Source of the DNA: a phage
Length of the DNA stretch: 64,000 nucleotides
Strand: one strand, 5' to 3'
Sequence record: PZ151149.1
Position numbers and translations under genes: made by a program. How positions within the stretch are numbered: the stretch's first letter is position 1; the number at the start of each line of letters is the position of its first letter. Below the pieces are notes generated by a model, which worked only from the letters and a program-made list of their open reading frames with translations, was not told where the DNA came from and ran no database searches. Of this stretch, positions 1 through 63,561 are shown piece after piece.

Positions 1-1122
1 TTACGCAATACTGGAATAAAATTTGCGCATTTCGATGAGGACTCCGCGACATTTACCAGCATTTCAGAAAACAACTCTGTGATGTATAAGCTGGAAGTGC
101 GCGGGTCTAATGCGGATTCGACCAAACCAGCAAGGATTAGATTTAATGGAGTGGAGATCGTCGGGACTGGTTATGAAACTGGCCTAAACTTTAAAGTTCT
201 TACTCCAACTGGACAATTGCACGAAGAAAAGGTATTCTATGGTCGTGGTGCTGTATTGGCAATGCGTGATTATCTTTCTTTGCTGAAAGGTGATTATATT
301 ATTGCAATGGCATCACATGGAGAACTATTTGCAGATGTTATAAGTGATGACATCTTCGCAAAATTGGGTTCGGTGTCTTTCCCTAACCATATTTTGTTAC
401 AGCAAATGCCTCGCGTATCATATGCCGCAATTTATTCTACTAAAATGGGTAAAATTGTTTGTGAGGGTATGCAAGCGACCCACGGGGAAGGACAAGATTC
501 GTCTATACAAATTGAGAAGGTTTATGATACTATAGATGATCTTGCGATCACAGGAACACCACAACGATTTTTAGATTATCCGGTTGAGTATGTTAGCGAA
601 GATGCCGAACATTTCGAGCTAATACAATGGCCTCATGATGAGATAAGCGCACCACTTGAAGATTTTAACATAAAGGCAGGTGACAAACTATCAATATCTT
701 TTGAATTGTTCCGTGATAGTGCCGCAGCCGCAGCAAACGTAACAGCGCGATTCTTCCATAACTATTTTATGGAGGGGCAATATAAAACAGGTGTTCGTTA
801 CAATGCCAGCCAGAAAGATCAATGGGAAAAGTTCGAAGCTGTTTATACTGTACCGGAAGGTGTCGATAGTGTAGTGACTGGTTGTATCAGATATCCGACC
901 AACTCCAATGAAGGTGTTGTTAAGGTTAGAAACATACTAATAACGCCGATCAGTGGAGTAGTCAAAACTACTGGTCCTACTTCATTTGGTGTTAATGGTG
1001 TTAGAACAACTCACATTCAGGATAACGGTGATTTTACTAACCCTGTAATGAGTCTTCTTAAACTGCCTAGAGATAATAAACACATCACATCCAACAACTT
1101 TAAAGAGTTCGATGTTGATTAA
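1..1122 (+). CDS. tail fibre protein, 3' portion (gene probably starts upstream of window)
   Basis: Frame of ORF 79..1122 is open back to nt 1 with no in-frame stop; sits directly upstream of the tail-fibre genes; by T4 gene order gp34/gp35-like. Confidence 0.55.
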   Translation, partial: LRNTGIKFAHFDEDSATFTSISENNSVMYKLEVRGSNADSTKPARIRFNGVEIVGTGYETGLNFKVLTPTGQLHEEKVFYGRGAVLAMRDYLSLLKGDYIIAMASHGELFADVISDDIFAKLGSVSFPNHILLQQMPRVSYAAIYSTKMGKIVCEGMQATHGEGQDSSIQIEKVYDTIDDLAITGTPQRFLDYPVEYVSEDAEHFELIQWPHDEISAPLEDFNIKAGDKLSISFELFRDSAAAAANVTARFFHNYFMEGQYKTGVRYNASQKDQWEKFEAVYTVPEGVDSVVTGCIRYPTNSNEGVVKVRNILITPISGVVKTTGPTSFGVNGVRTTHIQDNGDFTNPVMSLLKLPRDNKHITSNNFKEFDVD

Positions 1123-1283: not shown

Positions 1284-1291
1284 TATAAATA
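1284..1291 (+). promoter_or_regulatory. T4-type late promoter TATAAATA
   Basis: Exact TATAAATA about 34 nt upstream of the ATG at 1325, which has a GAGG Shine-Dalgarno. Confidence 0.55.
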
Positions 1292-1324: not shown

Positions 1325-2815
1325 ATGGCAGATTTGAAACATGGATCTACTGTAGGCGGATCTCCCATTTGGACGCAAGGAAACTTGACGATCCAGCCAG
1401 CGGGGGATCAGCTTTTCTACAAAGGTCATAAAATCTATACCGCTTTTGATAAACCTTCGGCTGCCGATTTTGATGCTGTTAGTGCTAAAGACGGTGGCAC
1501 ATTTCAAAAGCAGGTCCATTTTGAGGAAGGTTTAAGCGTCGGTAGTGCATCGGCTGGAGAAACCAAAAAGAACGGGATCTTTAAAGGAAATAGTGATGCG
1601 GCTAACTTTGATGGTGTAAGTTGGGGTTTGCATTCGTGGAAATCTATTGGTTTTGTTAATGCTCGTGATGATGTTATCATGGCTTATATTGACACTACCA
1701 CAGGTGATTTTAAAACTAAAGGGACTATCGAAGGGACAGCCATTAAAGACACAGGTCAACGCGTCTATAGCCCTGTTAATAAACCAACGAATAATGATTT
1801 AGATTTGGTGTCTCGTCGCGGTGATACCCTCACAGGAACATATAATTTAAACACTGTCACTGTTAAACTATCGGTTGATTCGAAATTAATTGCAAGGGAA
1901 CGTGATTTAATTAATTTTGATGCGACTAAGATCTATTATGGTAACGTTCTTGATACGTTGGTCTTCCGAAGTAAAGATGAGCCTACCATTTTTGTTAATG
2001 GTAAAGAAGGTCGTTTTTATCACACCAACAATAAACCAACTAAAGCCGATGTGGGACTAGGCAATGTCACCAATGATGCACAGGTTAAACGTGCTGGTGA
2101 TATTATGGAAGGTAACTTGCAAGCGCCTAGAATGTTGGCGACAAACGATCCGGCTGGACCTAATGAATTGGTTCGTTTGAGCTACTTTGAGAAAAAATCA
2201 ATGGTAGCAAATCCAACCATCATTGGAAACGTTGATTGGAACACTCTTATTAATCGCGGTATCTATCGTGTGGAAAATGCTGGGTCAGGTACTAATAAGC
2301 CGTCTGATAGCTATTATAACGGCGTTTTGATGGTATATCGCCCAGAAGATGCGGTCGGTACTCGTCGAATTGTTCAGGTGTATTATCCTGAATCTATTGA
2401 TCATCCGATGTGCTGGCGTTCGTGTTCTAATGAATCATGGACTGCATGGAACTATGTAGATCACCGTAAATTGGCTGATATTCGCTATGTTAACGTAACT
2501 GGCGATACCATGACAGGACCGTTAACTGTTCCGGCTGCAAACGGTGTTAGAACAGCTAGAGGTGCATATAATGGTGATAACTACTATGCTGGGTTAAATA
2601 GTGCCGATGGTACGGCTATGATTCACCGTATAAGCGATATTAAAGCCACCGAAAAATTGGGTATTACCCATGATTCTAAGGCTGTTTTCATCAAATCGCG
2701 TGGAAATACTCAGGACACCGACCGTTATGAACTTTATCACGAAGGGCATAAACCTACCCCTGCCGAAGTTGGCGCGGTTCCACTTAATGCGGTGATTGAT
2801 TTTGGTACTTTCTAA
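1325..2815 (+). CDS. tail fibre protein (gp36-like position)
   Basis: 496 aa; GDTMTGPL and HEGHKPTPAEVGA fibre-type motifs also found in the adjacent 1018-aa fibre; late promoter and SD upstream. Confidence 0.75.
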   Translation: MADLKHGSTVGGSPIWTQGNLTIQPAGDQLFYKGHKIYTAFDKPSAADFDAVSAKDGGTFQKQVHFEEGLSVGSASAGETKKNGIFKGNSDAANFDGVSWGLHSWKSIGFVNARDDVIMAYIDTTTGDFKTKGTIEGTAIKDTGQRVYSPVNKPTNNDLDLVSRRGDTLTGTYNLNTVTVKLSVDSKLIARERDLINFDATKIYYGNVLDTLVFRSKDEPTIFVNGKEGRFYHTNNKPTKADVGLGNVTNDAQVKRAGDIMEGNLQAPRMLATNDPAGPNELVRLSYFEKKSMVANPTIIGNVDWNTLINRGIYRVENAGSGTNKPSDSYYNGVLMVYRPEDAVGTRRIVQVYYPESIDHPMCWRSCSNESWTAWNYVDHRKLADIRYVNVTGDTMTGPLTVPAANGVRTARGAYNGDNYYAGLNSADGTAMIHRISDIKATEKLGITHDSKAVFIKSRGNTQDTDRYELYHEGHKPTPAEVGAVPLNAVIDFGTF

Positions 2816-2885: not shown

Positions 2886-5800
2886 ATGGCAGATTTAAGC
2901 AGAATCCAATTTAAACGCACTAGCACTAAAGGTCGTAAACCTGATGCTAGTACGATGTATCCGGGGGAATTAGCAATCAACCTTGCGGATCAATACATGT
3001 TTACTAAAAATGATTCGGGGACTCTCATCAATTTAAGTTGTCCTCCGGTGTATAACCGTGACGTTGTAATGGCGGGTAAGGTTAAAGGAAATGATTATAT
3101 TTTAAGCAAAACCGCTAATTATTTTGAAGACCAAACCGCGCGAGATCTTAATTATTTTGGTGCGTTTCGACCGAATAATGCTGATGGTTGGTCTAACTTG
3201 ATTCTGAACATTCCTCACCCCAGCGGTAAAGCACACGGTCGCGGGTTTGAATTTCAATATGGTTCTAGTTCCTCTCAGGTTAAAACCTATGGCTTTGATA
3301 AAGATGGTGCTAAGCGATTCAGCTTTCGCATGTATCATGAAGGTGATAAACCTACCCCATCGGAATTGAACGTTTACAGCAAACAAGAAGTTGATCGCAT
3401 GTTTGTTAAAAACGTTAAAATGTCAACTCCTAGCAGTGCAACAGGGTATTTCAAAATTGCTACCGCTATGATCCCACAGCAAGGAAAAATGGTATTTATT
3501 CGTATCTATGGTGGTAATGGATACAACGTTAACTCTCCGACTCAAGTTGATTTTGTAGAAATCGTGATTCTTGGTGGGAATGGAAATCCTAAAGGTGTTA
3601 CTGTTGCTGCATATCGAAGAAATTCTTTAAATCAACTTGAAGTGTTTGCTATTAATACATCCGGTGACAACTATGATATCTACGTAAAATATGGTCGGTA
3701 TACCGATAATGTTATTGTAGAATTTGGTAAAACGGTTGGTGTTAATTTAACTGTTCATGATGTTCCAGATTTTTCGGAAGCAAAACCTGCTGGTACTACC
3801 TTTGAAGGTCGTATTATTACCATGTTTAATACTGAAAATAAACGAGGTTCTTTGTATTTCGATCAAAACACGCAAGAGACTTATGATATTATCAGTTTGT
3901 GTGACTATTCAGGTACTGGCAAAAAATATATTCGTAAATTCCGCAGTGGACCAAGCTACGCAATCTGGCATGAAACTGTTCAAGACGACACATATCGTCT
4001 ATCAACTGGTACTACCGATTCTAACGAAGTTCTACGAATCACAGGTCGTACCATGTATACCGGAAAACTGGTAGTGGATGCAGGAAGTAATGCTATTCGT
4101 ATGCTGCGACCTACCGGACAAAGTAACTATCTGGAATATGTGGATAATCGCAACGGTGCTAGCAAGCGTCAAGGATGGATCGGTTTTGGTAGTATTGAAA
4201 ATGATAACTTCCAATGGTATAGCGACGTAGGTAAAAACTCATTACAGTTAGATACTACTGGTCAAATATCATTAACCACAGGTGCAACAAAAATTGTATA
4301 CGCTAATGGTCAATATGTATCGGCTAACTCTGATGCGTATCGTATGATCTACGGTAATTATGGTGCATTCTGGCGTAATGATGGTGCTAGCGTTTATCTT
4401 CTGTCTACTGCTGAAAATGACAAATTTGGTGCTTGGAATACCTACCGACCGTTTATCTATAATTTAGTATCTGGAGACGTTAAATTAGGTGGTACTAACA
4501 CCGCATGTTGTTTGTATCTGGGAATTGATGGTAGTACCCGTATCGAGGATAAATTAGTTTTCAGGGCGGGATCTCGTCAATCAATGGACTACTTAGAATT
4601 TGTTCATTGGGGGGCAAGCAATACAGGTCGAAATAACGTTTTAAGTCTTCGTGACTCAAAAGGATTTTTAGCAGAATTTGAGCGTAAAGGTGATAACACC
4701 ATTCAAAATACATTCTTCGGAAGATTTAAAGTCAATGGTGATTCTAACGCTATTACCATTAATGCTCCTACTGATTCTGATGCTGTTTATGTGAAAGGTA
4801 CTTGTAATGATGTAGATAACTGGTATATCGGTAAAGGTGGTGCTGGTAATGGATTAGTTTTTTGTAGTTATAAGACTAATGCGGCTGTTCATCTCACAGA
4901 TAATGGTGAGGTTTTATTAGCCCCACAAAACACCGCAATTGTTAACATCAATCGCGACCGTATACACATCAACGGTACACAGTGGGTGGCAAATCAGCCA
5001 CATGGCTGGGGTAATCAGTGGCTGTCCGAAGCTCCTATATTCGTTGATTTTGGTACTGGTGTTCCATATGATACCTATATGCCAATCATTAAAGCCCGTA
5101 GCCAAACTGCTGGCGGTTATGCAACTAAGGCCGATTTTGGTATATATCGTCGTGGTGCTGGTGATAATTGGGGTTGGGGTGATGCTGTTATTCGTGTCGG
5201 TTCTGCCGAAAGTGCCGATTCTTCACATCCAAATGCTAGATTCATGTTCCAAGCAAATGGAGATTTTAGAGCACCTGCTGGCCTCCGTGCTGGTGTTAAC
5301 TTGGGTGTTGGTACTGATCCTGCATTGGGTGGACATTCTATTGCTATCGGTGATAATGACACTGGCTTAATGTGGGGTGGTGATGGTCGTATTAACCTGC
5401 TTGCTAACGGACAGCATATTGCGTCATGGGGTGTTTTCCATCAAGAACATCCTGGGCTATGGTCTGTCGGTGCTGGGTTCTGGACAGAAGTCGATAAAGC
5501 GATTATTTCTCACGGTCACTTGATTCAGGCGAATGACAGCTATTCTACATATGTTCGTGACATTTATATCCGTTCGGATATTCGCGTGAAGAAAGACCTA
5601 GTTAAATTTGAAAATGCATCTAAGACACTTTCAAAAATTAACGGTTACAAATATCTTCAAAAGCGCGGGACCAATGAAGACGGTAGCGAACGTTGGGAAG
5701 AAAACGCTGGTTTGATTGCTCAGGAAGTTCAAGCTATTTTGCCGGAATTGGTTGAAGGCGATCCAGATAGCGAAAACCTTCTTCGTTTGAACTATAACGG

Positions 5801-5942
5801 TGTTGTTGGTTTAAATACTGCTGCGATCAACGAACACACCGAAGAAATTGCACTTCTTAAAGAAGAAAATAACCGTCTGAAAGAAGAAAATAAAATTCTT
5901 CATGATCGTCTTGCTGCAATTGAAGCAAAATTATTTGGTTAA
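2886..5942 (+). CDS. 37: long tail fibre distal subunit (gp37-like) with C-terminal intramolecular chaperone domain
   Basis: 1018 aa, beta-rich Gly/Asn/Thr fibre composition; shares YHEGDKPTP motif with the upstream gene; last ~122 aa match the S74-type chaperone pattern. Confidence 0.85.
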   Translation: MADLSRIQFKRTSTKGRKPDASTMYPGELAINLADQYMFTKNDSGTLINLSCPPVYNRDVVMAGKVKGNDYILSKTANYFEDQTARDLNYFGAFRPNNADGWSNLILNIPHPSGKAHGRGFEFQYGSSSSQVKTYGFDKDGAKRFSFRMYHEGDKPTPSELNVYSKQEVDRMFVKNVKMSTPSSATGYFKIATAMIPQQGKMVFIRIYGGNGYNVNSPTQVDFVEIVILGGNGNPKGVTVAAYRRNSLNQLEVFAINTSGDNYDIYVKYGRYTDNVIVEFGKTVGVNLTVHDVPDFSEAKPAGTTFEGRIITMFNTENKRGSLYFDQNTQETYDIISLCDYSGTGKKYIRKFRSGPSYAIWHETVQDDTYRLSTGTTDSNEVLRITGRTMYTGKLVVDAGSNAIRMLRPTGQSNYLEYVDNRNGASKRQGWIGFGSIENDNFQWYSDVGKNSLQLDTTGQISLTTGATKIVYANGQYVSANSDAYRMIYGNYGAFWRNDGASVYLLSTAENDKFGAWNTYRPFIYNLVSGDVKLGGTNTACCLYLGIDGSTRIEDKLVFRAGSRQSMDYLEFVHWGASNTGRNNVLSLRDSKGFLAEFERKGDNTIQNTFFGRFKVNGDSNAITINAPTDSDAVYVKGTCNDVDNWYIGKGGAGNGLVFCSYKTNAAVHLTDNGEVLLAPQNTAIVNINRDRIHINGTQWVANQPHGWGNQWLSEAPIFVDFGTGVPYDTYMPIIKARSQTAGGYATKADFGIYRRGAGDNWGWGDAVIRVGSAESADSSHPNARFMFQANGDFRAPAGLRAGVNLGVGTDPALGGHSIAIGDNDTGLMWGGDGRINLLANGQHIASWGVFHQEHPGLWSVGAGFWTEVDKAIISHGHLIQANDSYSTYVRDIYIRSDIRVKKDLVKFENASKTLSKINGYKYLQKRGTNEDGSERWEENAGLIAQEVQAILPELVEGDPDSENLLRLNYNGVVGLNTAAINEHTEEIALLKEENNRLKEENKILHDRLAAIEAKLFG
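5574..5939 (+). other. intramolecular chaperone (S74-like autoproteolytic) domain of the fibre
   Basis: SDIRVKKD...GLIAQEVQAILPELV...heptad C-terminus, the pattern of T5 pb1 / K1F endosialidase chaperone domains; predicted cleavage before Ser at 5574. Confidence 0.65.
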
Positions 5943-5950
5943 TTTAAATG

Positions 5951-5968
5951 GCGGGGAGAAATCCCCGC
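5951..5968 (+). promoter_or_regulatory. GC-rich hairpin between fibre gene and first Gly-rich gene
   Basis: GCGGGGA-gaa-ATCCCCGC stem-loop with no T-run; nearly identical to the stem of the cassette at 43652..43667 on the other strand. Confidence 0.35.
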
Positions 5969-5980
5969 TAAGGATCTTAA

Positions 5981-6277
5981 ATGGGCTATTGGGTAAGTAA
6001 TGAACAAGGCACTAAAATAGATGCTGTAAAATGGCATGTTTTTGATATTCCTAATGGATATGTCCCCGGTCGTGCTGGTGTTGCCGTTTTGCGGCATACT
6101 GCTAATGATGTTTGGGGTGATATTCATATTTCCGTTGACGGTGTGGTCGCCGCGCGTCGTCGTGGTGGTGGGGATTGGGGATTTACGGTTAATGCGTTTG
6201 TTCCTGCTGGATGTACTGTCACCTTTGGTCATGGTGGTGGCGGTGGTATTGAATACTTTAAATTTATGGAGTTTTAA
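5981..6277 (+). CDS. glycine-rich small protein, paralog 1 of 3
   Basis: 98 aa; AAGGA SD; MGYWV start, FDIPNGY and GGGGG motifs shared with the next two ORFs. Confidence 0.6.
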   Translation: MGYWVSNEQGTKIDAVKWHVFDIPNGYVPGRAGVAVLRHTANDVWGDIHISVDGVVAARRRGGGDWGFTVNAFVPAGCTVTFGHGGGGGIEYFKFMEF

Positions 6278-6279
6278 TT

Positions 6280-6585
6280 ATGGCTGGATGGGTTGCGGGA
6301 AGAATGGCTAATGCTATTAGCATTTATGCTAATGGTGGGTGGTTTGGTATCCCTAATGGTTGGGTGGCTGATTCATGCGGTATTGTGTCTGTTCATGCCG
6401 AAGCAGTTGGCGGTGGAGGTGACTTGGACGCCGAATTATATGTAAACGGTACTCTCGAATCAGGTCATCACGCTGGTAATGCCGGAAGTTGGGGAGCTAG
6501 TTCTTTAGTTGGTGTTGGCGCTACTGTCAGTTTTAGCATTGGTAAAGGAAGTTTACATCACTTCCAATTTAGGAGAATGCATTAA
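6280..6585 (+). CDS. glycine-rich small protein, paralog 2 of 3
   Basis: 101 aa; GGAG SD; WFGIPNGW and GGGGD motifs; starts 3 nt after paralog 1 stop. Confidence 0.6.
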   Translation: MAGWVAGRMANAISIYANGGWFGIPNGWVADSCGIVSVHAEAVGGGGDLDAELYVNGTLESGHHAGNAGSWGASSLVGVGATVSFSIGKGSLHHFQFRRMH

Positions 6586-6887
6586 TGGGATATTGGGTGT
6601 ATGGCGTTTTAGACAATAAAGCCGGTAAAGCGAATCAGGGATGGTTTGATATTCCTAACGGGTGGACGCCTGACGCTTTCGGTACGGTTTCATTTGGTGC
6701 TAGTTCTGCTGGTGGTGGCGGTGGTGACTCAGAATTGCTTTTGCATGGCTTTTGTGTGTCTGGAAGTCATAAGGGTCATGATTGGGGACAGATCCATTCT
6801 TGTATTGTGCCGCAGGGAGTAACGATCACGGTAACTACAAACAGGGGTATTTCCCATCTTCGTTATAGACGCTTGAGCAACCGTTAA
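6585..6887 (+). CDS. glycine-rich small protein, paralog 3 of 3
   Basis: 100 aa; AGGAGA SD; WFDIPNGW and GGGGGD motifs; start overlaps paralog 2 stop (TAATG). Confidence 0.6.
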   Translation: MGYWVYGVLDNKAGKANQGWFDIPNGWTPDAFGTVSFGASSAGGGGGDSELLLHGFCVSGSHKGHDWGQIHSCIVPQGVTITVTTNRGISHLRYRRLSNR

Positions 6888-6940
6888 AAAAAGAATTAAG
6901 GAAAACTCCCAGGGAAGGGAACTACTAAGGAGAAACGGCT

Positions 6941-7180
6941 ATGGTCTATAATATCGTCATGGGTGCTTTGTCTAATTTCGGAATGAAACTATTGTCAAAG
7001 TTAATTAGTGAAAAGATGCTCACTAAAATTTTCTTCTATTGCGCTCGTCGTCTTGCGGCTTATACTAATACGCCAATTGATGATCGTTTTGTGGAAGAAC
7101 TTTATAAGGAGTTTAATAAAGATCAGTCAGAAGATAGTAACGAGCAAGATAAACCTAGTGATAGTCAACTACCTAAATAA
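6941..7180 (+). CDS. hypothetical protein with hydrophobic N-terminus
   Basis: 79 aa; AAGGAG SD 7 nt upstream; lies between the Gly-rich genes and holin. Confidence 0.5.
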   Translation: MVYNIVMGALSNFGMKLLSKLISEKMLTKIFFYCARRLAAYTNTPIDDRFVEELYKEFNKDQSEDSNEQDKPSDSQLPK

Positions 7181-7213
7181 GAGTACACTGTCATAGTTAT
7201 CTTAGGGCATTAT

Positions 7214-7870
7214 ATGCAAGTTTCTGAAAAAGGGAAAGACTTTGCTATCTCAAATGTCCTGCGCGCTATTTTCACAACTAAAAGCACGGAGTTGCTCGTA
7301 CTTCGTGTTTTTGCTGCCGTCGTGTTGTCTATATTAGCATTTGTCGTTTATAGTAAAAACGAGTTATTTGCGCTTTATAAAGAGACTCGTTATGAGACTT
7401 ATGCTCACGTTCTCCAGGTAGAGAAAGACCGCAATTTTGATAATGCAGCACAGGAGCAGTTACAGATAGTTCATGTGTCGGCTGATGCCGATTTTTCTGC
7501 TGTTTTTAGTTTTCGTCCGAAAAACCTAAACTATTTTGTTGATTTGGTGGCATATGAAGGAAAGCTACCGCATACAATCGATGAAAAAAATTTAGGCGGA
7601 TTCCCTATCAATAAAACGAGTGAAGAATATCGTAGGCATCTTTTAGGTAAATCCTATTTTACCGATAAAGATTTCCAGTATATTCCATCAAGAGAAAAGA
7701 AATTAGAGAGTATCGATATAGGGGTTATGTATTCTTGTCCTATATTCAATCTCGACAATGTCTATTCTGGTAGTATCTCCATTGCATGGAAGAATAAACC
7801 GGATATTGACATTGAGAATTTAGATACTCTTTGCAATCAATCTGCCAGAATCCTCGGAAGGATTAGATAA
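7214..7870 (+). CDS. t: holin (T4 gene t family)
   Basis: 218 aa, same length as T4 holin T; conserved blocks LEQLQIVH, SADADFSAV, FRPKNLNYFVD, AYEGKLP, ARILGR. Confidence 0.9.
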   Translation: MQVSEKGKDFAISNVLRAIFTTKSTELLVLRVFAAVVLSILAFVVYSKNELFALYKETRYETYAHVLQVEKDRNFDNAAQEQLQIVHVSADADFSAVFSFRPKNLNYFVDLVAYEGKLPHTIDEKNLGGFPINKTSEEYRRHLLGKSYFTDKDFQYIPSREKKLESIDIGVMYSCPIFNLDNVYSGSISIAWKNKPDIDIENLDTLCNQSARILGRIR

Positions 7871-7874
7871 CTTA

Positions 7875-7909
7875 AAGGGGAAGCCTTTCGGCCTCCCCTT
7901 CTTTTTATT
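7875..7909. terminator. bidirectional terminator between convergent genes
   Basis: AAGGGGAAGCC-tttc-GGCCTCCCCTT hairpin (one mismatch) followed by CTTTTTATT; lies between plus-strand t and minus-strand ORF 7905..8153. Confidence 0.5.
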
Positions 7910-10068: not shown

Positions 10069-10869
10069 TTAACCCTTCTTATATTCGCAAACATATTGAG
10101 TACCATAATCATAGCTAATGCGGCCTTTCTCGATGACCTCAAAGCGGATTTCATCGTTTTCCCCTACCCACATTTTGTACTCGTTGAAGTATCCTGCTAC
10201 ATCCGGTTTGCTCATACCAACAACCATATTTTTATATTGTTTGCTGCGTGTCAGATTTGATTTAAACACTTCGCGCTCATCAACATATACGAAAGAAGAC
10301 AATTCACCTTCGGTCATGGTCATTTTCAGCTTGCCGCCCTTGTTACCATAAGTAGAGTTGCCATACAATGGATCTTTGCGGCTGTCTGTTTCAATACCAT
10401 CAATGATTTTCCATGTAAATTTTGCAATGCACTGATAAGTGATAGATCCAGAGATTTTCTCTTCTTTCTTCTGTTCTTCCACCACTTTTTCTTCCTGTTT
10501 CGGTTGTTCTTCTTCAACCTTCGCAGAAGTCTCTGAATCGCTTTCTGACTCGGTTTCTTCTTTAGGTAATACATTCATCAAGTTTTGGATTTGAGCGTTG
10601 TATACAGCCTCCAGTGGCTGAATCTGCCCGATATTGATCATTGTATCACGAACAGTTTTATTCCAGTTGCGTTGCTCTTGTTTCAGAGACGGATCAATCT
10701 TAACAGCTTGAACATATACTTCATGAAGTTTAGAATCCAGTGCGGAGATAGACTCATTAGCACAAATAAACTTCTCTGATTTGGTAGTGGCTTTAGCGCA
10801 ATCAAAGGACGCAGCGTTAGCACCGAAAGCAGTAGCAGAAAGAACGATAGCAGCGATAATGTTTTTCAT
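10069..10869 (-). CDS. secreted protein with DUF1311 / LprI-like N-terminal domain
   Basis: 266 aa; signal peptide MKNIIAAIVLSATAFGANA; FDCAKA...EKFICAN...LDSKL...VY...QRNW pattern typical of DUF1311; acidic E/K linker; separate C-terminal domain. Confidence 0.7.
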   Translation of the reverse strand: MKNIIAAIVLSATAFGANAASFDCAKATTKSEKFICANESISALDSKLHEVYVQAVKIDPSLKQEQRNWNKTVRDTMINIGQIQPLEAVYNAQIQNLMNVLPKEETESESDSETSAKVEEEQPKQEEKVVEEQKKEEKISGSITYQCIAKFTWKIIDGIETDSRKDPLYGNSTYGNKGGKLKMTMTEGELSSFVYVDEREVFKSNLTRSKQYKNMVVGMSKPDVAGYFNEYKMWVGENDEIRFEVIEKGRISYDYGTQYVCEYKKG

Positions 10870-62119: not shown

Positions 62120-62361
62120 TTTGTGATCTCCTTATACTCAACACACCATAAGCGGGTAGCCCATGATAAACGCTCGTAACGCTGGCAGAAATCGGACCAT
62201 AGATATTGTGTGCCGTCCTGCATAGTTGAAATATGCGTTTTCTCTCCCACTTTCACGAAAGAAGTATTAGATTTTGTGATCTCGACCGGAGTATATCCGA
62301 AAGCTGGCGGTATTACTGATTCGTTGGTCTTCATTCTATATTCCTCACTCTTCTGTTTCAT
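62116..62361 (-). CDS. hypothetical protein
   Basis: 81 aa ORF. Confidence 0.5.
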   Translation of the reverse strand: MKQKSEEYRMKTNESVIPPAFGYTPVEITKSNTSFVKVGEKTHISTMQDGTQYLWSDFCQRYERLSWATRLWCVEYKEITK

Positions 62362-62581
62362 TTCTTTTATATGGTACTATAACAGGATTAATACAGCAAG
62401 CACCAATTACGTTATGAGCACCACAATTTAAACATTTATAATCATGGAACTTATTAAGGAATCGACCAAACTCATAACCGACTAACGCCGCATGTACTTG
62501 AGTCTCGATCTCATCCATATCAGCTAATGTTTTAACCTTCATAATATAATCCTCAAATGGTAGTTTTGCGAAGATGGTCAT
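62345..62581 (-). CDS. hypothetical Cys-rich small protein
   Basis: 78 aa; CLNCG...ACC segment. Confidence 0.45.
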   Translation of the reverse strand: MTIFAKLPFEDYIMKVKTLADMDEIETQVHAALVGYEFGRFLNKFHDYKCLNCGAHNVIGACCINPVIVPYKRNETEE

Positions 62582-62843
62582 TACATGCTTTTAATGCATC
62601 AGTCGAGGTGTCATAGCGAGTATTATCATAGCACCAGTAACCATCTGTCAACTGATAAATTAATCCATCCTTTTTAGCTTCGATGAAAGACAATTCTTTG
62701 AAAGTTTCTACTTTCTTTGCTGATACTCCACGATCGCGGCGTTTATACAGTTTAGCTAAAATGCGTTCGGCTTGTTCCTCTTTATCGCCAGACAGATCCC
62801 AGATAATACTGCGGATATGTTTGATTAATTGTTCAGTGGTCAT
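62553..62843 (-). CDS. hypothetical protein
   Basis: Start taken at ATG 62843 (AGGAGAATCAACA SD); the track start 62897 lies inside the promoter cassette. Confidence 0.5.
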   Translation of the reverse strand: MTTEQLIKHIRSIIWDLSGDKEEQAERILAKLYKRRDRGVSAKKVETFKELSFIEAKKDGLIYQLTDGYWCYDNTRYDTSTDALKACNDHLRKTTI

Positions 62844-62881
62844 TGTTGATTCTCCTAGAAAGTGTCGTGCTTCGATGTGTG

Positions 62882-62912
62882 TATTGTGCAATAACACCGG
62901 ATCGCTGTCAAC
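62882..62912 (-). promoter_or_regulatory. early promoter (PeSL-like, weak stem)
   Basis: TTGACA, 17 nt, CACAAT, followed by the conserved SD. Confidence 0.45.
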
Positions 62913-62929
62913 ACTTTCTAAGAAAAATT

Positions 62930-63214
62930 TTAAATTAATCGAATATAGCCCAGAATTTCAGCACTTTTAGCCAGGTCTAAAACTTCCCATTCAAGGTCGC
63001 CGTAGTCATAATTTGCAACCATCAACTGATCATTTTTCATGCAGCAATCATGAGAGAAAATTTGCCCCGCATAAACTACGATAGTGATAAACTTTCCTGA
63101 TTCTGGCGGTGTGGAAGACAAAGCGACCATATGACCATTCAGCTTAGTCACCAGTGATGGAACAATAAAATTCGGGCTTACCTGAATGCTGTTAAATCCG
63201 TTTGTGTCTTTCAT
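62930..63214 (-). CDS. hypothetical protein
   Basis: 94 aa ORF. Confidence 0.5.
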   Translation of the reverse strand: MKDTNGFNSIQVSPNFIVPSLVTKLNGHMVALSSTPPESGKFITIVVYAGQIFSHDCCMKNDQLMVANYDYGDLEWEVLDLAKSAEILGYIRLI

Positions 63215-63561
63215 GCCAGACCTCGCAAAACACTAATAGCATAATCATGCTGGTTATTCATAATATCAATTGCGTTGTGATAGCGAGCTAAACCATCAAG
63301 GATAAATTCTTGTTTATCCTGTTTCAGTTTGGTATCACGCGCAGCCATAAGAGCATCAAGAACAGGTCCAAAGTGATTATCTAATTCATCTTCGGTTGCA
63401 ATGTTTCCTATTGCCTCGTCGATCCGTGATTCTAATGCTTGCTTTTCGTTGATCACTTGCTGGGTATATTCCAACACATCAAGAATATCGCGGGTAACGT
63501 CGCCATGATAAGGTATTCCCGCGTGAATATGATCAATTAATCGCTGAATATCAATGTTCAA
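63211..63561 (-). CDS. hypothetical protein
   Basis: 116 aa; TTG start with GAGGG SD. Confidence 0.45.
   Translation of the reverse strand: MNIDIQRLIDHIHAGIPYHGDVTRDILDVLEYTQQVINEKQALESRIDEAIGNIATEDELDNHFGPVLDALMAARDTKLKQDKQEFILDGLARYHNAIDIMNNQHDYAISVLRGLA

Follow-up and report, generated by a model that had tools for sequence, protein, structure and literature searches.

Three ancient paralogous genes behind S74-type phage fibres encode a candidate cap for the fibre tip

We describe here three small genes, P1, P2 and P3 (together, the trio), that lie directly downstream of gp37, the gene for the distal subunit of the long tail fibre, in a 64,000-nucleotide stretch of phage DNA (sequence record PZ151149.1; the window hereafter). 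The window comes from an RB49-like T4-type coliphage of the genus Krischvirus. We propose that the trio products are part of the virion and serve as cap or adhesin of the processed gp37 tip, probably as a 1:1:1 hetero-oligomer, a reading to which we give slightly better than even odds (about 0.55). In T2, T6, S16 and most krischviruses, processed gp37 is capped by a monomeric protein, Gp38. A role at the fibre tip is favored by comparisons of sequences and predicted structures, namely the linkage of the trio to fibres ending in a Peptidase_S74 (S74) domain in four phage backgrounds, late, promoter-less and coupled expression, a predicted fold resembling fibre knobs, and complementarity with Gp38.

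Results

Three coupled paralogs in the gene 38 position

An earlier note, made from the sequence of the window alone, had described three coupled open reading frames (ORFs) of 98, 101 and 100 amino acids (aa) behind the fibre gene, each with its own Shine-Dalgarno sequence and together occupying the position of gene 38. ORF calls and sequence agree with this description, and the position is confirmed by the gene order, which reads gp35, gp36, gp37, the trio, an ORF of family phrog_402 and the holin gene t. Ribosome-binding sites are recognizable 8 nt 5' of P1 (AAGGA) and ahead of P2 (GGAG) and P3 (AGGAG). Two nucleotides separate the P1 stop codon from the P2 start codon, and the stop of P2 overlaps the start of P3 by 1 nt (TAATG). 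The three proteins are related to one another (30-39% identity; BLASTP E values of 8e-10 for P1-P3, 4e-16 for P2-P3 and 1e-6 for P1-P2). All of them begin with M-[GA]-x-W-[VI] and contain the motif [WV]F[DG]IPNG[WY], much as the earlier note had read them (an MGYWV-like start and W(F)DIPNGW). A GGGG(G)D run, also thought to be common to the three, is found at the homologous place in P2 and P3 only; P1 reads NDVWGD there and has its glycine runs (RRRGGGD, GHGGGGG) at other places. Family-wide, the run is not conserved (Salmonella forms have SAGDRGGD or GHSGGAMD instead) and the Asp residue that follows it is. The glycine richness that had been taken as a telling trait is thus incidental, the runs being variable and homology to the glycine-rich Gp38 being absent (see below). 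The idea of a Pfam "glycine-rich domain" was dropped for the lack of a Pfam match and the lack of conservation of the run.

P1, P2 and P3 are real genes under purifying selection, since the ratio of nonsynonymous to synonymous substitutions (dN/dS) in pairs of orthologues ranges from 0.05 to 0.42 overall (0.19-0.42 for P1, 0.05-0.32 for P2). Divergence among the paralogs is greatest in the loop region around positions 38-52. They could be placed in no known family: the three sequences gave no match in Pfam (E <= 1) or NCBIfam and none to the PADLOC models at E <= 1, and the sole match in PHROGs was a weak one to the C-terminus of phrog_18834, a family of unassigned function (E 0.002). In particular, no match was obtained to the Pfam models of C1q (PF00386) or TNF (PF00229) at E <= 1, or to the Caudo_TAP/Tfa, T4 gp38 or gp57A models of Pfam, PHROG and NCBIfam. 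Sequence searches against the PDB returned only noise (E >= 0.7). Neither a signal peptide nor a membrane segment was found in any of the three sequences.

The consensus of T4-type late promoters, TATAAATA, has two matches in the whole window, of which the one at position 1284 is the sole match ahead of the fibre and trio genes. No match to it lies between gp37 and the trio; lacking a separate promoter, the trio would be expressed from the 3' end of the late fibre message. A GC-rich hairpin separates gp37 from P1, and the start of the feature in the earlier note, position 5951, is the first base of its stem. The same hairpin occurs in phage KFS-EC and is annotated as "terminator" in phage vB_EcoM_G2248 (G2248), the top DNA match to window positions 5000-7900 (94%). 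As the plus strand lacks a T-run, we do not call it an intrinsic terminator; a terminator-like score is found on the minus strand only. The hairpin may set the gp37:trio expression ratio or stabilize the mRNA.

An old family tied to S74 fibres

A profile search of 5.8 billion proteins yielded 41 clusters, each made of proteins of about 100 aa or fragments thereof and all labelled "hypothetical"; wherever a cluster names its source, this is E. coli, Shigella or Salmonella. When 1.8 billion cluster representatives were searched exhaustively with a profile, 18 matches were obtained, about 15 of them genuine 100-aa relatives; only about a dozen further, more divergent metagenomic proteins of that size were added in this way. 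Three giant proteins (one with NHL, one with ankyrin and one with unnamed repeats plus DUF4347) were discarded as compositional or repeat artefacts. A scan of GTDB species-representative genomes detected no relative, and one of JGI metagenomes detected close relatives only. Among complete E. coli genomes, 27 of 5426 carry the module, in prophages.

At each locus recovered, a fibre gene ending in Peptidase_S74 is followed by P1, P2 and P3 in this order, with gaps of -4 to +4 nt. The Krischvirus carriers are G2248, UPWr_E1 and G37-3. E. coli and Salmonella also harbor temperate siphophage prophages with the trio, which there occupies the middle of the head-tail operon, between the gene for an S74 fibre of 1027-1233 aa and the tail-tube gene. 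A divergent metagenomic phage (L022/L023) has an S74 fibre followed by genes of 98, 105 and 110 aa and by a second fibre of 902 aa; in another metagenomic phage (L034/L035), a 615-aa fibre that combines Phage_T7_tail and S74 domains precedes genes of 98, 122 and 100 aa, and two contig fragments (L032 and L036) have the identical layout. The trio-linked fibres are thus found in myo-, sipho- and podo-type contexts, and all they have in common is the S74 domain and the residues just ahead of its cleavage site. The P2 orthologues of Salmonella bear an N-terminal extension of roughly 10-30 aa.

Two observations on individual carriers are worth recording. The trio prophage of E. coli KSC64 (L012; NZ_CP018840, 3533091-3574192) is about 38 kb long, lies in ycdX, encodes a large serine recombinase and has an IS4-like insertion just past the tail-tube gene; its fibre gene has an unusual place, flanked by the head-completion genes and by the gene for the tail tube. 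The Salmonella contig DABKDE010000001 carries an intact third trio gene (L025:7616-8002) that its record leaves uncalled, which means that counts based on annotation underestimate complete trios.

In a neighbor-joining tree, the proteins form three clades, one for each of gene positions 1, 2 and 3 without exception, and every clade holds members from Krischvirus, E. coli prophages, Salmonella prophages and metagenomes. That every position forms one clade with all phage types in it indicates that the triplication is older than the divergence of all the carriers. Gene number and the P1-P2-P3 order are unchanged in every lineage, down to 40% identity. Such a fixed pattern has the appearance of three non-redundant subunits rather than of copies diversifying for host range. 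The proposal that the genes were diversified for this purpose by tandem duplication does not fit an ancient triplication with fixed copy number and order and a single clade for each position.

The partner fibre

The gp37 protein of the window matches Gp34_trimer (E 1.3e-28), Peptidase_S74 (aa 897-956, E 1.2e-11) and phrog_1699 (E 2e-160); its match to gp37_trimer is marginal (E 5.5e-4; 20.3 bits, just below the 21.7-bit cut-off). The cleavage site has the canonical form ..DIYIRS/DIRVKK (slash, predicted cut). Its core, RSD.R[LV]K, is conserved in all 14 fibres aligned, and both the domain and the Ser-Asp site are present in the gp37 of the window and in every trio-linked fibre. Endosialidases, the T5 protein pb1 and T2 gp37 have a C-terminal chaperone that cleaves itself off, and by analogy with these the chaperone domain of gp37 is predicted to do the same. 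Ahead of this site, gp37 has a T6-like tip region and then an extra segment of 100 residues, absent from phages G5211 and KFS-EC, that contains a motif, LGGHSIAIGDNDTGLMWGGDGRINLLANGQHI, resembling a stretch of the T2 gp37 tip, LGGNSITFGDSDTGIKQNGDGLLDIYANSVQV. In G5211, the T6-like stretch reaches the S74 site and a canonical Gp38 then follows.

The trio and Gp38 in Krischvirus

In phages T2 and T6, the C-terminus of gp37 is cleaved and gp38 then caps the tip (PMC3157838), an order of events also given for T2-type fibres in general, in which cleavage precedes capping by Gp38 (PMC12892980). The gp37 proteins of T2, T6 and STML-198 (an S16-like phage) have the S74 site at their end and gp38 next to them. 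The trio is likewise found in the g38 slot with a partner gp37 whose S74 C-terminus is of the cleavable type, as in those three phages and in G5211. In Krischvirus, gp38 either adjoins gp37, as in G5211 (PF05268 GP38, E 1e-65), or is found at a distance of about 55 kb (RB49, JSE and Phi1). The displaced gene is 777 nt long in JSE, RB49 and KFS-EC. Its locus is filled in 45 of 59 Krischvirus records (including RB49, JSE, Phi1 and KFS-EC) and empty in 14. The empty form comprises the three trio phages (3/3) and the phages with an adjacent gp38, G5211, G2494, FL15 and FL20, the other records among the 14 having been scored by the displaced-locus probe alone. In the window, the site is empty as well, and tblastn found no match to Gp38 anywhere in the 64 kb. 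The complete genome of G2248 has no Gp38 at E <= 1, in a search that included positive controls. The displaced locus of G37-3 is empty; in this phage and in UPWr_E1, the check for Gp38 covered the two usual gp38 sites.

The converse case is provided by KFS-EC (MH560358, L004:4749-5240), the one phage with a decayed trio, whose displaced Gp38 is intact (E 5e-71). Here, a deletion has fused P1 (up to GGEGG) with P3 (from Asp48) at runs of glycine codons, apparently by recombination between these runs, and a 1-nt insertion (an extra G) shifts the reading frame, the rest of P3 remaining readable in the +1 frame. Together with the empty loci of the trio phages, this indicates that in Krischvirus the presence of the trio and that of an intact Gp38 exclude each other, the S74-ending gp37 partners being of the same kinds. 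The comparison of the locus across related phages, which the earlier note had recommended, thus finds the trio always behind an S74 fibre and complementary to Gp38 in this genus.

Homology between the two can be rejected: an hhalign comparison of the trio family with a Gp38 alignment gave a probability of 0.8%, and P1-P3 match neither GP38 nor Gp38_N in Pfam, where genuine Gp38 proteins score E values of 1e-65 to 1e-72.

A separate observation concerns two proteins from E. coli-associated contigs (P0028 and P0040), in which the N-terminus of the phrog_402 ORF (MVYNIVIGA..) is joined to the C-terminal half of P3, starting at the glycine run; this looks like another rearrangement at that run.

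Mosaicism of the fibre locus

Two E. coli prophage contigs (L006 and L009) are 90-92% identical in DNA to the window from position 4352 or 4425 to 6901. Other prophages share positions 5883-6901 only (the last 60 nt of gp37 and the trio), at about 90-92% identity, and have a different tip. At its other end, gp37 is 95% identical to G37-3 (positions 2886-3403), and its middle part is close to neither G37-3 nor the prophages. These mosaic identities indicate that a fibre cassette was recently exchanged between a temperate siphophage and a virulent T4-like phage. As the different extents shared with the prophages show, the trio can travel together with its neighboring tip or leave it behind, by recombination in the conserved DNA that encodes the chaperone. 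Tips and accessories combine freely: class A tips are found with the trio in G37-3, in prophages and in a podo-type fibre and with Gp38 in RB49, and T6-like tips with the trio in the window and G2248 and with Gp38 in G5211.

Predicted fold

AlphaFold2 models of P3 and P1, predicted independently, give the same picture (mean confidence, pLDDT, of 82 and 84.4, respectively): about 18 N-terminal residues predicted at low confidence as a helix or peptide, then a seven-strand β-sandwich of the jelly-roll type. In P1, the helix spans residues 5-12 and is followed by the 7 strands. With P1 as query, the top Foldseek matches in the PDB are the C1q domains of cerebellin and C1QL and carbohydrate-binding modules (CBM35/6/36), at E >= 2.8e-3. 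A search of BFVD, a database of predicted viral structures, was led by proteins of 300-380 aa (E 1.5e-4 to 7e-3, TMq up to 0.66), among them some annotated as tail fibres, a C1q-domain protein from a cyanophage and proteins with collagen repeats. Structure prediction on single paralogs, another check proposed in the earlier note, thus returned a fibre-knob-like jelly-roll. The models place the fold in the class of trimeric heads and sugar-binding domains, a likeness at the level of the fold alone. The N-terminal segment of low confidence fits a docking peptide, for which the peptide with the conserved Trp is the obvious candidate.

Features of the window

The features discussed above are collected in Table 1 together with the neighboring genes.

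Table 1. Coordinates of features in the window
Feature	Position	Strand	Remarks
gp35	79-1122	+	
Late promoter consensus, T4 type (TATAAATA)	1284..1291	+	upstream of gp36
gp36	1325-2815	+	
gp37, distal long-tail-fibre subunit, 1018 aa	2886..5942	+	directly 5' of trio
Mobile cassette: distal half of gp37 and trio	4352..6901	+	
T6-like distal tip region, gp37 aa 606-797	4701..5276	+	50% identity to G5211 gp37 aa 609-802
Extra tip segment, gp37 aa 798-897	5277..5576	+	ends at predicted cleavage serine (..DIYIRS/D)
C-terminal intramolecular chaperone domain, gp37 aa 898-1018	5577..5939	+	coiled coil at its end; predicted to be cleaved off
Hairpin between gp37 and P1	5949-5970	+	-19.9 kcal/mol, z -3.2
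P1, 98 aa, position-1 paralog	5981-6277	+	KWHVFDIPNGY ... EYFKFMEF-end
P2, 101 aa, position-2 paralog	6280-6585	+	SIYANGGWFGIPNGW ... FQFRRMH
P3, 100 aa, position-3 paralog	6585-6887	+	AGKANQGWFDIPNGW ... LRYRRLSNR
Small conserved ORF, phrog_402	6941-7180	+	between P3 and holin t
Holin t	7214-7870	+	
Empty displaced-gp38 site	62820..62856		JSE locus flanks map to 64000-62820 and 62856-62330

Positions 62300-63400 of the window are 100% identical to phage phiS (PP449093), which matches positions 5000-7900 on the holin side only; the phage of the window thus looks like a phiS-like backbone carrying a different fibre cassette. Among the small leftward genes past the holin, a 266-aa ORF (10069-10869, minus strand) starts with a signal peptide, contains paired cysteines and a long linker rich in Glu and Lys, and may encode a secreted or periplasmic protein.

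Discussion

One could envision the following course of events. The C-terminal chaperone domain of gp37 would help the fibre to trimerize, as expected from what is known of the family, and would then cut itself off at ..YIRS/D. The coupled genes would supply P1, P2 and P3 in equal amounts, each a predicted jelly-roll of about 80 residues preceded by a flexible N-terminal peptide with a conserved Trp, and these would come together, most likely as a 1:1:1 hetero-oligomer, on the distal end of the fibre once cleavage has freed it. This stoichiometry is the simplest one because the paralogs are ancient, co-inherited and translationally coupled and have the predicted fold of trimeric heads. The resulting cap or adhesin would contact the cell surface, the job performed elsewhere by the unrelated, monomeric Gp38.

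Several points weigh against this proposal. The trio proteins have no marked hypervariable segments, which is unusual for a primary determinant of host range. The trio is still about 90% identical in DNA where the neighboring tip has been swapped, showing no co-variation with its supposed docking partner, and this conservation also speaks against the idea that the genes diversify for host range. KFS-EC is viable; hence an S74 fibre can work without the trio, which is dispensable when Gp38 is present. The absence of Gp38 from a whole genome is established for a single carrier, G2248, the window covering 64 kb. Lastly, our literature search found no paper on these genes or on the virion proteomics of trio phages. 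The suggestion of the earlier note that the products are receptor-binding tip modules or fibre accessories is thus favored by indirect evidence, namely the S74 linkage, the late coupled expression, the knob-like fold and the complementarity with Gp38.

A different role at the same place is that of non-virion assembly or maturation factors, which would transiently aid the folding of the tip, release or remove the cleaved chaperone or stabilize the stump pending attachment of the fibre to the particle, in the manner of T4 gp38, gp57A or the Tfa proteins of λ and Mu, leaving receptor binding to the gp37 tip itself. The slot is shared with T4 gp38 and the Tfa-type chaperones, expression is coupled and stoichiometric, and the lack of hypervariable loops, like the attachment of the trio to the S74 domain rather than to any particular tip and its conservation through tip swaps, is what such factors would show. 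S74 fibres, on the other hand, are self-chaperoned, and those of RB49-type and T5-type phages and of KFS-EC fold without a trio; known fibre chaperones are not jelly-roll sandwiches, no Caudo_TAP/Tfa or T4 gp38 model recognizes P1-P3, and the protein with which the trio alternates is a Gp38 of the virion-bound adhesin type. We regard this role as unlikely, if deserving of attention. It is more doubtful still that the paralogs form three separate homotrimeric tips, alternative caps that would endow one phage with several receptor specificities, the reading nearest to the diversified adhesins of the earlier note. C1q/TNF-like domains are commonly homotrimeric, the paralogs differ most around loop 38-52, and lectin-like CBMs are among the fold matches; yet alternative tips should differ in number between phages, disappear one at a time and evolve fast, whereas the trio has always exactly three members in fixed order, down to 40% identity, under tight translational coupling and purifying selection.

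The link with the fibre might also be purely positional, the trio being non-structural cargo (such as an intracellular factor that excludes superinfection, masks receptors, times lysis or counters defence) lodged beside a recombination-prone S74 region. No family annotation constrains such roles, the trio of the window lies just upstream of the holin gene, and its loss in KFS-EC was tolerated. Hitch-hiking can hardly explain why the S74 linkage holds in four phage architectures, at identities as low as 40%. Nor does it account for the mutual exclusion with Gp38, and the trio has neither its own promoter or terminator nor a signal peptide, membrane segment or PADLOC match; in siphophages, it sits between fibre and tail-tube genes, far from the lysis genes. 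We consider cargo as improbable as the homotrimeric tips.

The kind of arrangement that we propose is already known, in that fibres processed by a chaperone domain of their own can be capped by an accessory protein from a separate gene. The Gp38 adhesin (PF05268; N-terminal domain PF21721, Gp38_N) shares with the trio the slot after gp37, a partner that ends in S74 and the nature of a small, separately encoded, glycine-containing protein, as well as a short N-terminal G-W-[VI] motif, which is a lead only and too short to test. It differs in being one monomer of about 250-260 aa, built as a polyglycine-II sandwich with hypervariable loops, where the trio consists of three predicted jelly-rolls of about 100 aa; in our searches, the trio, unlike Gp38, was also found on siphovirus and T7-type fibres.

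For the proposed cap, the closest analogy would be the head of heterotrimeric C1q. Heads of the C1q/TNF type (C1q A, B and C; lymphotoxin alpha1-beta2) are compact jelly-rolls and are among the best structural matches of P3 and P1. In C1q, three paralogous chains form one head of pseudo-threefold symmetry on a trimeric stalk, which is the arrangement we suggest for the trio; the C1q/TNF jelly-roll has ten strands and the AlphaFold2 models of P1 and P3 have seven. Distal β-sandwiches of phage fibres (the Edwardsiella phage eiAU tail fibre, the C1q-domain protein of Synechococcus phage S-CAM4, collagen-repeat fibre proteins) gave the best matches in BFVD. These knobs are covalent parts of the fibre and homotrimeric, whereas the knob-like domain of the trio is encoded apart from the fibre and in three versions. 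The T4 gp38 chaperone, the Tfa proteins of λ, Mu and P2, and gp57A resemble the trio in that they are encoded by small genes just downstream of a fibre gene and are tied to its distal end, but they belong to other folds and families, and the partner fibres of the trio carry an intramolecular chaperone of their own. XepA and YomS of the Bacillus prophages PBSX and SPbeta are weaker matches than C1q/TNF; they are pentamers from a lysis cassette, and the trio of siphophages is not near lysis genes. In the libraries and literature searched, we found no description of the trio family, its three-paralog layout, its jelly-roll fold or its spread over myo-, sipho- and podo-type phages.

It is tempting to go one step further and to see in the trio a third design of fibre tip, next to those represented by the gp37 tip of T4 and by monomeric Gp38: a portable, C1q-like pseudo-threefold heterotrimer that would dock, by three N-terminal Trp peptides, on the post-cleavage stump of S74 fibres of myo-, sipho- and podoviruses and confer a receptor specificity independent of the tip sequence. 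We offer this extension tentatively, as a possibility that falls short of even odds.

Receptor-binding proteins underlie both host-range prediction and phage engineering. In the working model for Straboviridae, the receptor is bound by either the gp37 tip or Gp38. Work on receptor prediction notes errors in genomes that have no Gp38 homologue (bioRxiv 10.64898/2026.04.02.716166). The trio is labelled "hypothetical protein" in all the records that we have seen, including those of G2248, UPWr_E1 and G37-3, which are isolated coliphages of the therapeutic type. If the trio is indeed a tip adhesin, it would add a new class of receptor-binding protein to host-range models and provide a cassette-like module, about 0.9 kb in size, with which fibres of different phage morphotypes could be retargeted; it would also represent a viral case of a heterotrimeric C1q-like head.

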